In this document: in pieces, positions 4,641-12,618 of the stretch
How positions within the stretch are numbered: position 1 is the stretch's first letter
Layout of the letters: each line of letters opens with the position of its first letter
Virus genome (UHGV): UHGV-0040766
DNA length: 13,115 nt
Source of the DNA: a virus
Direction: 5' to 3' (one strand)
Made by a program: the position numbers and the translations under genes
Notes under the pieces: model-generated
Seen by the model: the letters and a program-made list of their open reading frames with translations, nothing else
Database searches by the model: none
What the model was told of the DNA's origin: nothing

Positions 4641-5339
4641 TTACGGAACAGCGGTAATCAGATCGCAAATGCCTGTTTTAGTTAAATCACTATTCAGCTT
4701 CTGAAAATTGGCATTCAGCATTGCGGTATGTATTCGATTCTCAAGTTCAAAGAAGAGACCGATCTTGCCCTCTTTGGCTGCCACCTTCTTCCAAATATTC
4801 ACCTGGTCATCTGCGATACGACTTGCGCAGGTGAACAAGAACGAACTCCCTCTGGGAAGGGATGTCGTGCTGTAGTATTCACCGTCAACTTCAATATACT
4901 TAGCTCGGAATGACTCCAGAGTTAGCTTTTTACCGCTCTCAGCCTGCTTTGTGTCTGCCTTGCTTGTCTTTTCCTGAACTTCAGGCTGTTTCTGCACAGG
5001 CTTTGGTGTCTCATTGACCACCGCAGTGCTGGCCGAACCATCCAAACTCTTGAGGCCATTAATTTGGATTAGATAAGCCAACTCCAGAGCCTTATCACCA
5101 GTGAGTTTTCCACGCATACTTACCCATTGACGCTGAACCGTCTTTAAGGCGTCTGCGTCCCCCGGGTTTGCTTTGAGTGCGTTGGAATAGGTAGAGCTAA
5201 GTTGTTCGTCTAATTTTGACAGGCGTTCGTTATCGCAGATTTTGTGTTCGATTTCTGCCGAAGCCTTTTGGCAGTCAAAGCTGGCTGCAAATACAGCCGG
5301 CGATGCCACCAACAATGATGCCAGTAGGATATTTTTCAT
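4641..5339 (-). CDS. periplasmic DUF1311 / lysozyme-inhibitor LprI-like protein with signal peptide (232 aa)
   Basis: ATG at 5337-5339 with GGAG 6 nt upstream; N-terminal MKNILLASLLVASPAVFA signal peptide; FDCQKASAEIEHKICDNERLSKLDEQLSSTY...QRQW pattern typical of DUF1311. Confidence 0.65.
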   Translation of the reverse strand: MKNILLASLLVASPAVFAASFDCQKASAEIEHKICDNERLSKLDEQLSSTYSNALKANPGDADALKTVQRQWVSMRGKLTGDKALELAYLIQINGLKSLDGSASTAVVNETPKPVQKQPEVQEKTSKADTKQAESGKKLTLESFRAKYIEVDGEYYSTTSLPRGSSFLFTCASRIADDQVNIWKKVAAKEGKIGLFFELENRIHTAMLNANFQKLNSDLTKTGICDLITAVP

Positions 5340-5377
5340 ATTCACTCCATAAATATAAAAGCGCCTGACTATAGCAC

Positions 5378-5593
5378 TTAACCAATTGCTTCTCTCATCT
5401 GATTGTGAAGCTCTTTCAGCCCATCACGTACCGCGTTCATGATACGTTCCAGGGATTGGTATCTGGGGTTTGGCACTGTTGGCCAACCGGCATACCACGG
5501 ATCGTCACCAAACAGACTCAGCAGTTCGTTACCGACACCGAAACAGCAGCAACTTTCTTTTACGTCATCAGCGTTTTCTGCCTCGTCCCACAT
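5378..5593 (-). CDS. hypothetical protein (71 aa)
   Basis: ORF track only; weak RBS; position between two minus-strand genes is compatible with an operon. Confidence 0.35.
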   Translation of the reverse strand: MWDEAENADDVKESCCCFGVGNELLSLFGDDPWYAGWPTVPNPRYQSLERIMNAVRDGLKELHNQMREAIG

Positions 5594-5827
5594 ATTGCGG
5601 GCCTGCTCTGCGTCGATTTCTCTCTCTCCCTGCGCAACTTTATGATTTCGGATTTGACGAAAAGCAGGTTTGCGTCGTTGTCATCGTCGACCGTACTGAA
5701 GTGGCACACTGAATTTGGCCGTCTGTAATGGGCAGATCCGGCAACTGTTTAAAAACATCCATCTGCTCATGGATACGCAGAAACCACCTTGCCAGCTCCA
5801 TCTGCTCACCGCGGGTGAGGAGATTAT

Positions 5828-6559
5828 TCAGCGGGGACTTAACAAAAGCGGAGACTCGCTCGACAAGCCGGCCAGTGAACCAACATCCCCCCAATTCTGG
5901 TGTGTCAGCGCCCCGATACTTACCACTCCAGGCAGCACTTCTTTGTGGTTGTGGTAGTGCCCGGACAACAATAAACGGAAGCCGATATCTTTCAGTTCCT
6001 GTGCGTCGATGCCGACATCGGGCATGGTGGGGATCGCTTTGTTGATTGAGGTATGTACAACAACATCATGGTTGTCACCATCCAGCCCGGAACGCAGCGT
6101 TTTGAGATCGCTGATAAGTTCTGCGTAGTTATTACGCCAGCTAATCAGATGGACGGTTACGTCGCCCATTTTGATGGAATGAGGACGTTTGCCGCAGACG
6201 ATTTCCACACCGATTGAGCGCAGAGAGGCTGCTGCATTGGCGCTGTATACGGAATCGTTGGTTTCGAGGTCGTGGTTGCCAGCCAGCATTACCACCTTGA
6301 GACCCAACTCTTTGATGATCCACTCGTAAGTTTCGGTCACGAAATGCAGAACGGAAGGTGATATAGCACCGCGAACATGGAAGGTATCACCAGCTACCAG
6401 CATGTTCTTACAGCCAGCAGCTTTCATCGCTTTGGCCGCCTCCTTCGTAGCGTCCAGTTGGATCTCCAGCCGAGAGTTAAGCCCGTCAGCGTTTGTTGTC
6501 GCAAAAGCATCCCAACGATGATAATGGGGATCTGATATTACCCCGTATGGCAATGTCAT
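5828..6559 (-). CDS. calcineurin-like metallophosphoesterase (243 aa)
   Basis: motifs SDPHYH, AGDTFH, GNHD and SGHYHNH in the canonical order; ATG at 6557-6559 with AAGGA 9 nt upstream. Confidence 0.75.
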   Translation of the reverse strand: MTLPYGVISDPHYHRWDAFATTNADGLNSRLEIQLDATKEAAKAMKAAGCKNMLVAGDTFHVRGAISPSVLHFVTETYEWIIKELGLKVVMLAGNHDLETNDSVYSANAAASLRSIGVEIVCGKRPHSIKMGDVTVHLISWRNNYAELISDLKTLRSGLDGDNHDVVVHTSINKAIPTMPDVGIDAQELKDIGFRLLLSGHYHNHKEVLPGVVSIGALTHQNWGDVGSLAGLSSESPLLLSPR

Positions 6560-6955: not shown

Positions 6956-7600
6956 TTAAAACGTCTCTGAGGGCTTCTGACGCGCTCTGCTAATGTCTAT
7001 TACCCCAGCTTTTGGACGAGGGTCTACAAGATTCAACTCTTCAGCACTGTGATACTCCGTGTCGAACTCCCGATCGACATGGCGAATGTAAATGGCTGTC
7101 AGAAGGCTGTTATCATTCAGAAAGTGTCCGTAAGATTTGCGAATTACTTCGCCAACCTTCTCAATCTTCTCTCCGCCCATGCAGAGATGGTTAAATCGGC
7201 TGTGTTTCCGCAGCATTTCATCCACCGGGCCTGAGTAGACCTTATCAACTCTCCCGAACCGGATGATATTTCCGGTATCAGCTTCAACCAGACAAACGAG
7301 TTTGCCAGGTTCGACACGATCTCGCCAAGTGACACCAGAGCGCAGTGTGTTGAAGTAGGGAGCATCCAATCCGATGATCGGTTTACGAAATGCTAGTAGT
7401 GGCACGTAACGTATGCAGCTGTTTAGGTGGAAATGCGCACCGGCGTCGTGGAGTTTAAGCCGGGTTTCGTTAATCGGGCATTTCGAAGCAATGCCGCAAA
7501 GGTCGCAGAGCAACTTCTGTTTGTTCAGACTAGTGTTTGATTCAATGGTGTAGGAGCCATCTTCAAGACGGCGAACCCAGCGCGTGCGTTTAAGATCCAT
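6956..7600 (-). CDS. hypothetical protein (214 aa) with an N-terminal Cys/His cluster
   Basis: ORF track; CDLCGIASKCPINE...HDAGAHFH...C cluster; no family recognised. Confidence 0.55.
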   Translation of the reverse strand: MDLKRTRWVRRLEDGSYTIESNTSLNKQKLLCDLCGIASKCPINETRLKLHDAGAHFHLNSCIRYVPLLAFRKPIIGLDAPYFNTLRSGVTWRDRVEPGKLVCLVEADTGNIIRFGRVDKVYSGPVDEMLRKHSRFNHLCMGGEKIEKVGEVIRKSYGHFLNDNSLLTAIYIRHVDREFDTEYHSAEELNLVDPRPKAGVIDISRARQKPSETF

Positions 7601-7676
7601 AATTCTTGTTCAAATAATTTTGTCCGGGGCAACGATAACGGATAAGGCGCACCGGAGTTTGCAAATGCCTGTTTAC

Positions 7677-7901
7677 TTATTCACTTTATTCACAGGCCCG
7701 ATCCAATATTTAGATCCCCAGAGAGATCCTACAGAAGATCAAAAGAGATCCCCGATCGTCTCCAGCGCTTGCGGTTACTGGCTTGAGAAGGGGTTACTAT
7801 CCACTATAGGGAGCAAAATAACCACTGTAGAGAGCATAATAACCGCTATGAAGAGCAAAACAACCTCTCTGGAGAGTAGTCGGTATCCACTGTAGTGAGT
7901 A
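7677..7901 (+). other. replication origin module 1 (P1 oriR / RepFIB type): two tandem DnaA boxes, six GATC sites, five iterons
   Basis: TTATTCACT at 7677-7685 and TTATTCACA at 7686-7694; GATC at 7700, 7713, 7725, 7737, 7747, 7754; five roughly 21-bp-spaced iterons 7797-7901 (e.g. ATAACCACTGTAGAGAGCA). Confidence 0.7.
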
Positions 7902-8060
7902 GGAGACAATGTTTTAACTGGATAACTCCGAGCCTGTTTTTCTGCGGCAGATGGCTGATATTCTTGGAAATATTGTAAATTTTGCGTTGCGGCGTGTTTA
8001 TTTCGATCACACATTATCCCCAGAAGGGGAGTGATGCCTGATTTTGTAATTATCTGATTT

Positions 8061-8305
8061 TTATACACAGGCCCGATCCAGTAATTCAGATCCCTGTTAG
8101 AACCAAAGAGAACCACAAAGACCCAAAGAGATCCCCGGCCCTTGCAAACCGTTGTGCCACATGGCTTTAGAGGTTATCGATATCCACTATAGTGAGAAGA
8201 ACAACCACTATAGAGAGTAAATCAACCACTATGGAGAGTAGAAAAACCGCTGTAGGCGGTAGGATAACCACTGTGATGGGTGCTACTATCCACTGTAATC
8301 AGTAA
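8061..8305 (+). other. replication origin/control module 2, immediately upstream of repA: one DnaA box, three GATC sites, six iterons
   Basis: TTATACACA at 8061-8069; GATC at 8075, 8089, 8130, with AGAACC/AGACCC variants where module 1 has AGATCC; six iterons 8180-8304. Confidence 0.7.
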
Positions 8306-8342
8306 AGGCACCCAAGCCGTCGAATAAAAAGAGACATTTGGA

Positions 8343-9398
8343 ATGAGCGTAAACGACAATAAAAACATTGCGATAAGCGAAGCATTTTCCGAAACAGACA
8401 AAAAGACCGGCGAAGTTGTTACGTTAGTTCCTAACACCAACAACACAGTTCAGCCTGTTGCTCTGATGCGTCTTGGTCTCTTCGTTCCGACGCTGAAATC
8501 GACATCCAGGGGTAGAAAGGGGCAAATGGTCTCTATGGACGCCTCCGCTGAACTCAAACAGCTGTCTCTGGCCAAAGCCGAAGGGTACGAGGATATAAGG
8601 ATTGCTGGTCTTCGTCTTGATATGGATAACGATTTCAAAACATGGGTGGGCATCATCCACGCGTTCGCCAAGCACAAGGTTGTTGGTGACACCGTCACGT
8701 TGCCGTTCGTCGAGTTCGTCAGACTTTGTGGCATACCAACAGCCAGATCGTCCGCGAAGTTACGTAAGCGCCTGGACAGCTCTCTAAGTCGTATCGCCAC
8801 AAACACCATCTCATTCCGCAGCAAAGGCTCTGAAGAGTATTACGTTACGCACCTTGTGCAGACGGCAAAGTACAGTACCAAGAATGACACGGTCGAACTG
8901 AAGGCCGATCCTAAGATTTTCGAACTTTACCAGTTCGACAAAAAGGTGCTTTTGCAACTTCGGGCCATCAACGAACTCTCCAGAAAGGAATCCGCGCAGG
9001 CGCTCTACACCTTCATTGAAAGTTTGCCACCAGACCCGGCGCCAATCTCATTGGCTCGCTTACGCGCCAGACTTAACTTAACCAGCCGCACCATTACCCA
9101 GAATGCGACAGTCAGGAAGGCGATGGAGCAGCTGCGAGAGATCGGCTATCTCGATTACACTGAAGTGAAACGCGGCAGCTCGGTCTACTTCGTCATCCAC
9201 TATAGACGGCCGAAGTTACGTTCGGCACTGCCGCCATCTATGGCTACGCCTGAAGAGCCAGAAGATATCTTGCCAGGTGATGATCCGGAGGACATTATCG
9301 ATGTTGCCCCTGAAGAAAAAGACGGGGAAATGGTCATGTTGAGCAAGGAAGAACTGGCGATTCTCGAAGAGCTGCGCAAGGCAAAGGCTCGCAAATAG
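8343..9398 (+). CDS. repA: iteron-binding replication initiator, RepFIB / P1 RepA family (351 aa)
   Basis: translation closely matches my recollection of F-plasmid RepFIB initiator (e.g. [69 protein letters not shown]); flanked by iteron arrays. Confidence 0.9.
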
Positions 9399-9400
9399 CC

Positions 9401-10003
9401 CAACCACTGTAGAGAGTAAAAAGGCTCACTATCTACTGTAGTGAGCCTTTTTGTTTATCGGAAATGCAATATCCACTGTAGTGAGTAAAAGAAACCGAAG
9501 AATAACCACTGTAGGCAGTGCGCACAAATCGCGAAGTAAATGTTAGTGGTTGCAAACATAGATAAAACAAGGGCTGAGAGGTTAGCGGTCACTGGGTATC
9601 TCTGTTAAGTCTACTCTCTACAGCGGTTATCGTCGCTCTCCTCATTGTTGACTATCCACTGTGAAGAGCAGAATTGGCTGACTTGACCTCTATCCACTGT
9701 AGTGAGTGGATATCCGTTTAAAACAGCGAAGATTTACTCTCCATAGTGGATATCCGCTGGAGGGGGCATTCCATCACTCTCTATAGTGGTTGTTTGTAGT
9801 CAGTGAACGCCTGTTTACTCACTACAGTGTATAGCGACCCCGATAATCACCAATTTACTCACTACAGTGGATAGTTGATATCGTGGCAGAGGGTTTGCTC
9901 ACTACAGTGGTTGGGGTGCATACCTGAAGGGTGTTCTACTCGCTACAGTGGTTATGAGCCGGATTCACACGCGGTGAGCTGGCTACTCACCGCAGTGGAT
10001 AGT
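9401..10003. repeat. downstream iteron array (incA-like copy-control locus): about 14 iterons, the first five or six forward, the rest inverted
   Basis: forward units at 9401, 9431, 9469, 9502, 9651, 9690; inverted units (TACTC(A/T)CTACAGTGG-like) at 9612, 9736, 9775, 9816, 9856, 9897, 9936, 9984. Confidence 0.8.
9419..9458 (+). terminator. rho-independent-type terminator of repA, built on an iteron-like sequence
   Basis: 10-bp perfect stem AAAGGCTCAC / GTGAGCCTTT (9420-9429, 9441-9450), followed by TTTTGTTT, beginning 21 nt after the repA stop. Confidence 0.55.
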
Positions 10004-10007
10004 GTTA

Positions 10008-10223
10008 TCAGTGGATTTTCTTCAGCAGACCCCAGAGTGTCCCGGCCTTCGTTGCGAGCTTACCTGTTTCCGGATCGTACATGTGCCATTCACGTCGCTG
10101 GTGGACAATATACCCATCTTCACGTTCCAGTCGTTCCAGTACGCCGGACTGCTTGAACCCTTTGGCACGCCAGTAGCCGCTTGTTTTTTCGATTTCCAGA
10201 CCTGTCAGTGTAACCGCCATCAA
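10008..10223 (-). CDS. hypothetical protein (71 aa), last gene of a three-gene cluster
   Basis: ORF track; start overlaps upstream reading frame by 4 nt (ATGA); stop is 4 nt from the last iteron. Confidence 0.55.
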   Translation of the reverse strand: MMAVTLTGLEIEKTSGYWRAKGFKQSGVLERLEREDGYIVHQRREWHMYDPETGKLATKAGTLWGLLKKIH

Positions 10224-11539: not shown

Positions 11540-11545
11540 AGTCAA
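11540..11545 (-). promoter_or_regulatory. -35 hexamer TTGACT at the right end of the IS110-family element (half of a circle-junction promoter)
   Basis: TTGACT lies 14 nt from the element end; joined to the left end this gives TTGACT, 17-bp spacer, AATAAT. Confidence 0.45.
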
Positions 11546-12618
11546 GCTGTTATCGGGATACTGTTGATCCGCCTGTTTTGATTGCGCAGTAACGTGTAAA
11601 CTTCGCGGGAGATATATCGCTTTAGACAGCGTATCGCTTCCATTTTTGTATGTCCTTCGGCTACACGCCTGGCGACATATTCCTTTGTTTTTGCGTCAGT
11701 TCGTAAGCGTCCGATGGCGATGATGTGAAGTGCACTATTTGCAGCACGATCTCCACCACGATTAAGTCGGTAACGGTTCGTTTTTCCAGAAGAAACGGGG
11801 ACCGGGCTGACACCACACAGTGCCGCAAATCCTGATTCTGATCTTAACCGTTGAGGATTGTCTCCGGCAGTGATCAGCAACTGTGAAGCGCTTTCGTATC
11901 CGATAGCATTACGTTTAATCAGCTCAGGTGCCAACTCGTCGACAATTGCCGCAATCATGACATCCAGATCAGCGATTTCGTCATGTAACTCGAGATAGCG
12001 TCGGGCAAGGGACTTTAATGAAATGCGATAAACGTTGGTTACATTGCGGTATTCACTGGCATCAGGTCTCCAGGAACCCAGGGTCCTGATGAGCTGCATG
12101 CGCGTCATATTTCTGAGCTGTTCACGTAATTCATCCGGGGCAGAGATAATATTTGAATGGATAATCTGGAGAGCGACTCTGCGGGCTGATATTGCTGTTT
12201 TTCGGCAAGTTTTTAATACCCGCAGGGACTCAATCATGCCATCACGCGTTTTGGGAGTAACTGTCCTGATGCCTGAGAATGCTGCATGAGCGGCACATTC
12301 AGCATCAATTGTGTCACTTTTACCCCGTTTGCGTCGCTCCATCCGGTCTGGAGCAGTCACCTCAAGAACCTCTAACCCGGCGTTCTGAAAATAACGAAGC
12401 AAACCGGAACCATAGGTACCTGTGCACTCAACACCAATTCGCTTTAATGTCCCAAACGAGGTCATCCATGCCAGCATCTGCCGGTAACCTTGTCGTGTTG
12501 TGGAGAAATACTGAGTCCCAAGGACTTTATTGTTCTGATCTACGACAGCGGCAACGTGCAAATCTTTATGTGTATCCACGCCACCCACAACGGCAGCTTT
12601 GGTAACTTTATCAACCAT
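11542..12618 (-). CDS. IS110-family DEDD transposase / recombinase (358 aa)
   Basis: N-terminal VGGVDTHKDLHV, ECTGTYGSG and TDTIDAECAAHAA motifs (DEDD/RuvC-like) plus C-terminal FAALCGVSPVPVSSGK segment; AGGAG 8 nt upstream of ATG at 12616-12618. Confidence 0.9.
   Translation of the reverse strand: MVDKVTKAAVVGGVDTHKDLHVAAVVDQNNKVLGTQYFSTTRQGYRQMLAWMTSFGTLKRIGVECTGTYGSGLLRYFQNAGLEVLEVTAPDRMERRKRGKSDTIDAECAAHAAFSGIRTVTPKTRDGMIESLRVLKTCRKTAISARRVALQIIHSNIISAPDELREQLRNMTRMQLIRTLGSWRPDASEYRNVTNVYRISLKSLARRYLELHDEIADLDVMIAAIVDELAPELIKRNAIGYESASQLLITAGDNPQRLRSESGFAALCGVSPVPVSSGKTNRYRLNRGGDRAANSALHIIAIGRLRTDAKTKEYVARRVAEGHTKMEAIRCLKRYISREVYTLLRNQNRRINSIPITA

Follow-up and report, generated by a model that had tools for sequence, protein, structure and literature searches.

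The plasmid origin of phage P1 is a compact affair. Its annotated record holds a single oriR with two DnaA boxes, five Dam sites, and five incC iterons that contain the promoter PrepA; then come repA and, downstream, nine incA iterons. Other iteron plasmids carry iterons beyond those of the origin itself. The oriV of RK2, for instance, has a minimal origin of five iterons and, apart from it on the upstream side, clusters of three iterons and of one; both there and at ori2/incC of mini-F, copy number is modulated by such additional clusters beyond the minimal origin. For mini-F, this effect of extra iterons on copy number is also cited in work on RepFIB (PMC11983097), a replicon that is itself described as a BCDD'D'' origin block plus an E–K control block (PMC11983097). 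Finally, chromosome 2 of Vibrio cholerae has an ori2-min, with a DnaA box and Dam sites, that lies beside ori2-inc, a second block of related initiator sites; ori2-inc regulates through titration and handcuffing, and the initiator represses its own promoter (PMC6090056).

Here, we consider a replicon in which an entire origin-like ensemble, rather than a few iterons, occurs twice in front of one initiator gene. If there are two such modules, which one is the origin, and what is the other one for? The replicon lies in a 13,115-nt stretch of DNA from the virus genome UHGV-0040766 (we call this whole stretch the window), for which an initial annotation had suggested a duplicated origin of the P1 type with a division of labor between the copies. 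The replicon family and all of the building blocks are already known. A two-module origin in SSU5, pHCM2, pMT1, or IncFIB replicons, with its asymmetric Dam content, is not described in the accessible full-text literature (the original pMT1 sequence papers, which lie outside that scope, may list the repeats).

A Replicon of the SSU5 Phage-Plasmid Type

On the evidence of its sequence, the replicon in the window is the plasmid-maintenance replicon of a phage-plasmid of the SSU5/pHCM2/pMT1 type, an assignment that we make because of its nucleotide identity to p1585m1_B, SSU5, Cyrano, and pFra/pMT1 and because the same genes flank it. The Escherichia coli plasmid p1585m1_B, whose record is typed IncFIB by MOB-suite, is 100% identical to the window, and 49 further plasmid records are 99–100% identical to it; Salmonella phage SSU5 is 89% identical across 99–100% of positions 7600–9900, Yersinia pestis pFra/pMT1 is ~89% identical across the two-module region, and phage Cyrano is 82% identical to the window. 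With SSU5 and pFra/pMT1, the homology runs collinearly through the origin, repA, and the downstream iterons, and the neighbors (a 645-bp gene upstream and small cra-like genes downstream) are common to SSU5-type elements. The typhoid plasmid, pHCM2 of Salmonella Typhi, presumably has the same replicon, judging by the naming of the group.

The upstream neighbor, at 6956–7600 on the minus strand, encodes a hypothetical protein of 214 aa and forms the left edge of the replicon cassette. It adjoins the replicon also in pFra, SSU5, Cyrano, and a Klebsiella phage-plasmid; its homolog in Cyrano is annotated as an ASCH-domain protein, and a Pfam search with the protein from the window gave no match. 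Insertion sequences flank the replicon on both sides within the phage-plasmid backbone: an IS110-family transposase ORF at 11542–12618 on the minus strand (Pfam DEDD_Tnp_IS110 and Transposase_20) and an IS3-family transposase, annotated in the identical record, at ~4813–6026, also on the minus strand.

Two Modules Upstream of repA

The two modules had been called tandem. That there are two of them, that they are related, and that both lie upstream of repA are all correct; strictly tandem they are not. The duplicated units, both on the plus strand, extend from 7666 to 7935 (the module distal to repA) and from 8036 to 8315 (the proximal one), are 78% identical over ~270 bp in a pairwise alignment, and stand on either side of ~100 bp of unrelated spacer. 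For the distal copy, the initial annotation had listed two tandem DnaA boxes, six GATC sites in 58 bp, and five iterons and for the proximal copy, one DnaA box, three GATC sites, AGAACC or AGACCC in the remaining heptamers, and six iterons; every one of these items is where it had been placed.

The distal module opens with a tandem pair of DnaA boxes on the plus strand (7677–7694), TTATTCACT at 7677–7685 and TTATTCACA at 7686–7694, in the arrangement that P1 has with TTATCCACA and TTATCCACT. Exact matches to TTWTNCACA number just two in the 13-kb window, at 7686 and 8061, and each heads a module. Outside this E. coli subclade, the 5' box of the distal pair (7677) is not well formed; the pFra locus has TTATACCCA at that position in the alignment, and no DnaA box was scored there in either pFra or SSU5. 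There follows a series of A-rich heptamer repeats (7700–7757) with six GATC sites, at 7700, 7713, 7725, 7737, 7747, and 7754, which is presumed to be the tract for unwinding and methylation sensing. Six such sites in 58 bp were reached in none of 1,000 Markov simulations of the window (the maximum was five, attained once), and this module has what is expected of a P1 or RepFIB origin, namely about five or more GATC heptamers between DnaA boxes and iterons. Five direct iterons on the plus strand complete it (7797–7907, with cores at 7801, 7822, 7843, 7864, and 7887 and spacings of 21, 21, 21, and 23 bp), and no promoter element was found between the iterons of this array. The iteron motif as a whole has 30 matches in the window vs. 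7.5 expected.

The proximal module has the same parts in other numbers. A single DnaA box on the plus strand, TTATACACA at 8061–8069, matches the consensus exactly and is followed by a heptamer tract (8075–8134) with GATC at 8075, 8089, and 8130; three more heptamers keep the register without a Dam site, reading AGAACC at 8099 and 8109 and AGACCC at 8119. Then come six direct iterons on the plus strand (8180–8310, with cores at 8184, 8205, 8226, 8247, 8268, and 8290 and spacings of 21, 21, 21, 21, and 22 bp). In the Markov simulations, three GATC sites in 60 bp are not above chance when taken alone, and with three sites, the proximal module by itself falls short of the GATC cluster of the P1 and RepFIB origins. 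The weight of this trio comes instead from homology and from the conserved positions of the sites in relatives.

The spacer (7936–8035) is not conserved between clades. A simple tandem duplication might have left in it remnants of sequence from the upstream flank or the 5' end of repA, an idea that we discarded: local alignments of 7908–8060 with both scored at the level of shuffled sequence. It does contain a DnaA-like box, TTATCCCCA at 8014–8022, whose position is conserved and which is a better match in relatives. Another DnaA-like box, inverted, lies to the right of the distal iterons (ACTGGATAA, at 7921–7929 on the minus strand, with the reverse complement TTATCCAGT), and its counterparts come closer to the consensus in relatives (TATGGATAA in Cyrano and TGTGTATAA in Pantoea). 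An extended −10-like element in the spacer, TGATATTCT at 7956–7964 on the plus strand, points to the proximal module; it occurs in this sequence and not in relatives and probably arose by chance.

The Initiator Gene, Its Promoter, and Its Control Iterons

The gene repA (8343–9398, plus strand) encodes a Rep3-family initiator of 351 aa, which is annotated as RepA in the identical record; Pfam recognizes Rep3_N (E = 2.4e-11), and Rep3_C falls just under the cut-off. The protein is 93% identical to the RepA of SSU5, 60–63% identical to the initiators of pO157 and F-type RepFIB, and 46% identical to the RepA of P1, and an initiator of the Rep3 (WH1–WH2) kind beside the origin is characteristic of P1 and RepFIB.

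Where is the promoter? A generic scan with the sigma-70 consensus gave weak 9/12 matches only and missed the element that we now think likely, which was located by a comparative search for extended −10 elements among 58 related loci. This presumed repA promoter, TGCTACTAT at 8281–8289 on the plus strand, lies between proximal iterons 5 and 6. The motif TGnTAnTAT was found in 46 of the 58 loci, once per locus and between the last two proximal iterons, almost always 62–63 bp ahead of the repA ATG (the exceptions being two loci with −59 and −45); in the distal array, it was never found across the 58 loci. The proximal array, in other words, has the form known from P1 and RepFIB of upstream iterons, phased at ~21 bp, that contain the repA promoter.

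Directly 3' of the repA stop codon is a hairpin with a U-run (9417–9460, plus strand; −23.3 kcal/mol, z = −4.0), likely an intrinsic terminator, whose stem consists of an iteron-like sequence and its inverted copy; the likely terminator thus probably overlaps a putative RepA site. A simple terminator scan did not pick up this hairpin, and an Rfam search over 7400–10200 gave a single sub-threshold match attributable to chance. Within the repA coding sequence, there is also an iteron-like 13-mer with two mismatches, CCACTATAGACGG at 9197–9209, which could be either a chance occurrence or an internal RepA site.

Beyond repA lies an incA-like control array (9400–10000) of ~14 iterons in both orientations and with irregular spacing, the second, irregular iteron array that P1 and RepFIB also have downstream of the gene. 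Several duck E. coli plasmids (e.g., pGS04EC-1), although 99.6% identical, lack exactly one 40-bp unit of it, 9814–9853, which amounts to one iteron. This deletion is natural copy-number variation of the control iterons, and both origin modules are intact in these plasmids. We had considered the deletion as a natural test of the modules; it falls in the downstream array, outside both.

Relation to P1, RepFIB, and Other Iteron Origins

By descent, the closest relatives of this locus are, from sequence homology, P1 oriR and RepFIB. The proposal that the duplication is one of a P1-oriR-type origin is borne out: the modules are paralogous, and the left halves of the distal module and of P1 oriR are homologous, with (A)GATCCC[C/T]GATCGT and CTGGCTT..AGAAG common to both. 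The distal module has the P1 order of tandem DnaA boxes, GATC heptamers, and five iterons at 21-bp phasing; the −10 of repA sits, as in P1, where the last two upstream iterons meet (in P1, the last two incC iterons); and there is a second, irregular array downstream of repA. The differences from P1 are just as plain. P1 has a single module, in which the same five iterons serve as origin and as promoter/operator, whereas the window has two modules 375–383 bp apart with a promoter element in the proximal one only, and its iterons are of the CCACTGTAGAGAG type rather than the GATGTGTGCTGGAGGG type of P1.

The comparison with RepFIB gives a similar picture. As in P307, F, and pO157, a DnaA box and GATC sites precede the upstream iterons, and control iterons lie downstream. 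Classical RepFIB (pO157 and the F-type FIB plasmid), however, has one DnaA box and five GATC sites in one upstream block, a layout that agrees with the published BCDD'D''/E–K description (PMC11983097), whereas the window has two blocks; the iteron sequence differs as well, and the two-module clade forms a separate branch of the RepA tree. IncFIB(K), too, has one module. Had the reference replicons been organized identically, the duplication would have been nothing but the standard state of the family; P1, pO157, F-type RepFIB, and IncFIB(K) all have a single module upstream of repA, and this locus, with its two paralogous ones, departs from that organization. The single modules of these replicons have 5–6 GATC sites, as does the distal copy, and BLAST searches from distant single-module replicons match the distal DnaA/GATC part only.

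Outside the family, V. cholerae ori2-min together with ori2-inc is the closest analog in logic, though not in family membership: RctB is unrelated, GATC lies inside the iterons, and the regulatory block is no paralog of the whole origin. The extra clusters of RK2 and mini-F also differ from what we see here, in that they consist of iterons only and include no second ensemble of DnaA box, heptamers, and iterons.

An Old and Widespread Layout

How far does this organization extend? A RepA search of one genome per species yielded 80 loci, and we mapped the motifs in the 1.1 kb that precede repA. Nearly every locus with a RepA ~62–95% identical has the two-module layout, in the common order of DnaA box, 5–6 GATC sites, and 4–5 iterons and then DnaA box, ~3–4 GATC sites, and ~5 iterons, and such loci come from Escherichia, Kluyvera, Buttiauxella, Yersinia, Rahnella, Erwinia, Pantoea, Cronobacter, Franconibacter, Phytobacter, and Xenorhabdus. 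A neighbor-joining tree of RepA from ~70 loci places the two-module loci in a single large clade, with a further pair from Xenorhabdus, and the single-module replicons outside. In trees of the modules themselves, distal copies group mostly with distal copies and proximal copies mostly with proximal ones, from which it follows that the duplication predates the split of these lineages. There are exceptions, L054/L058 and L061/L064, whose distal and proximal copies group together, which suggests independent or repeated duplication or else gene conversion. With these reservations, the duplication is, by the sequence comparisons, ancient and widely conserved.

A skeptic might still hold that all of this is a recent neutral tandem duplication, or even an assembly artifact, whose proximal copy is simply decaying, and the fewer GATC sites and DnaA boxes of that copy are what such a view would cite. 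We give it next to no credence, and we take it to be ruled out by the comparative evidence: 333 independent plasmid records in PLSDB cover at least 80% of the two-module query, the layout is found in many genera with RepA down to 62–70% identity, conservation extends to the three-GATC pattern, and it is far stronger in the proximal module than in the spacer.

The company that the replicon keeps suggests another thought. P1 uses separate origins for its plasmid and lytic modes, and the window belongs to the SSU5 phage-plasmid group, so might one module serve plasmid-prophage maintenance and the other lytic replication? We consider this very improbable. The same layout occurs in plasmids without a phage context, namely Rahnella p1 (with metabolic genes), Cronobacter pCTU1 (beside parA), and Pantoea and Erwinia plasmids, and its presence where no phage genes are near implies that it is not a device of the phage lifestyle; moreover, the RepA iterons are common to both modules, and Klebsiella SSU5-like phage-plasmids manage with a single one. 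These Klebsiella elements are a curiosity in their own right. Such plasmids (L005, at 2457–2960 of Klebsiella pneumoniae pIncFIB_DHQP1400954) have the same flanking genes as the window, a RepA that is 48–50% identical, other iterons, and a single module with two DnaA boxes and 6–7 GATC sites; in them, to judge by this pattern, the replicon cassette has been swapped inside a conserved phage backbone.

Unequal Conservation of the Two Copies

The copies have not fared alike. The distal tract has 5–7 GATC sites in 56 of the 58 two-array loci, and the proximal tract has anywhere from 0 to 5 (three in 22 loci, four in 19, and 0 or 1 in 10). The initial annotation was right that GATC sites are reduced in the proximal copy; the reduction is no recent loss, being an old and stable state in Escherichia, Yersinia, Rahnella, Erwinia, and Pantoea. 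The proximal DnaA/GATC tract has vanished from at least four separate lineages, among them Cronobacter pCTU1, Pantoea L053, [Erwinia] mediterraneensis L070, and Scandinavium L033 (in L070, its relics are still visible); these lineages keep a complete distal module and the promoter-proximal iterons. The one reverse case seen is L056, at 1900–2510 of a contig from a Buttiauxella metagenome-assembled genome, where the distal module has AGATTA heptamers and a single iteron and the proximal copy is intact. (The same Buttiauxella genome carries two related replicons of this family, L056 and L054.) Across clades, mean identity is 0.675 for the distal DnaA and GATC tract vs. 0.564 for the proximal one, and the iterons are equally conserved (0.65 distal and 0.66 proximal).

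These data bear on what the proximal module still does. It had been suggested that this copy keeps only the iteron and promoter part, and here, the suggestion fails. The proximal DnaA box and the first and last GATC sites are among the best conserved columns across genera, the AGAnCC register is retained in the heptamers that lost GATC, and within the SSU5-type clade, the proximal left half is 92% conserved, compared with 86% for the distal tract and 74% for the spacer. Because of the conservation of the box and the outer GATC sites and because of the excess of 92% within the clade over the 74% of the spacer, we conclude from the alignments that the proximal left half is not junk and is under selection rather than decaying. 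Each of the two modules, indeed, is an island of conservation between unalignable DNA.

Which Module Is the Origin?

Any account of this replicon has to accommodate what we have observed: its anatomy, its homology with P1 oriR, a duplication that is old and widespread, two copies conserved to different degrees, and a promoter element in the proximal copy. On balance, we lean toward the view that the distal module is the origin proper and that the proximal one is the promoter/operator of repA plus an auxiliary and still constrained half-origin. We do so because of the GATC counts, the lineage-specific losses, the conservation across clades, and the promoter element. That the distal copy is the functional origin was also the first choice of the initial annotation, and an intact distal tract in 56 of 58 loci, the proximal losses, and a promoter found only in the proximal array favor it; the reverse decay in L056 does not.

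There is a respectable case against this reading. The proximal module occupies the position of the single origin of P1 and RepFIB, which lies immediately upstream of repA with the promoter inside its iterons; its six iterons are well phased, and its DnaA box and flanking GATC sites are conserved; and within the SSU5-type clade, its left half is the better conserved (0.92 vs. 0.86). In L056, the proximal copy may suffice as an origin. The nearest-neighbor duplex stability, computed in 40-bp windows, favors neither copy: both heptamer tracts lie at −48 to −53 kcal/mol against a mean of −54 for the window, and in this profile, neither stands out as an unwinding element. Finally, the grouping of L054/L058 and L061/L064 means that the history may include repeated duplication or gene conversion.

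Could the roles, then, be reversed, with the proximal module, in the ancestral position beside repA, as the origin and the distal one as a cis-acting control element or enhancer that soaks up or loads DnaA, SeqA, and RepA and sets copy number through handcuffing? The position next to repA, the conservation of the proximal left half within the clade, and L056, in which only the proximal module is intact, would all fit, and L056 also fits the initial annotation's own hedge that the assignment might be the other way around. We nevertheless judge this arrangement improbable, though, like the rival that follows, it carries appreciable weight. An origin of the P1 type is expected to need its GATC tract, and several lineages have no proximal DnaA/GATC tract and yet have a complete distal module; it is the distal copy, not the proximal one, that matches the single-module relatives.

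Or both modules could be active origins served by one initiator, a Dam-rich distal primary, tightly gated by methylation and SeqA, and a Dam-poor, less sequestered proximal backup or alternative. Both, after all, are conserved islands, both keep a DnaA box, heptamers, and 5–6 iterons at 21-bp phasing, and the losses are reciprocal (the proximal tract several times and the distal one once, in L056), as redundancy predicts. The persistence of the AGAnCC register without GATC belongs here too: a Dam-poor paralog that keeps this register might fire or regulate while the primary origin is sequestered or undermethylated. Against this, the losses are strongly one-sided, at least four to one, and the proximal tract is the less conserved across clades, and we regard a pair of working origins as somewhat unlikely.

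To return to the distal module as origin and the proximal one as operator, how would such a replicon run? Protein binding, Dam dependence, and the start site of replication are all taken here by analogy with P1, F, and V. cholerae chromosome 2. As at P1 oriR, DnaA would bind the distal tandem boxes, RepA monomers would fill the five in-phase distal iterons, and the fully Dam-methylated tract of six GATC sites between boxes and iterons would be opened; after firing, SeqA would be expected to sequester the hemimethylated distal tract. By sitting at proximal iterons 5 and 6, RepA would mask the extended −10 and thereby repress its own gene, and the six proximal and ~14 downstream iterons would titrate RepA, with pairing (handcuffing) to origin iterons limiting copy number. 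The proximal array, in this scheme, would have two partners for pairing, the downstream array and the distal array, which lies 383 bp from it. The proximal DnaA box and its three GATC sites are probably an auxiliary input; they might, for example, lend the module some weak or backup activity as an origin or couple its control to methylation. The original notion of a subfunctionalized duplication can thus be kept in an amended form: the layout has most likely diverged into a full origin far from repA and a copy for promoter and control functions next to it, and the near copy is still a constrained half-origin.

Implications

The replicon family in question maintains the Y. pestis plasmid pFra/pMT1, many plasmids of Pantoea, Erwinia, Rahnella, and Cronobacter, and, in E. 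coli, Salmonella, and Enterobacter, phage-plasmids of the SSU5 type, some of which carry resistance genes. Its layout offers a natural system for studying the role of the Dam heptamers, the number of Dam sites that an origin needs, and the setting of copy number by iteron arrays paired in cis, and it is relevant to the design of curing and incompatibility cassettes and to the replicon typing of IncFIB-like phage-plasmids.

If the reading with two active origins were true, these plasmids would have natural origin redundancy and a methylation "tuning" within a single iteron plasmid, long kept across the Enterobacterales, and this would apply to the plague plasmid pFra/pMT1 and probably to the typhoid plasmid pHCM2. 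In P1 and F, a single set of iterons has to do the work of origin and operator alike; here, origin and operator seem to occupy separate stretches of DNA. A natural separation of origin and operator in medically relevant plasmids may be no surprise in kind, but it should be of interest to specialists in plasmids.
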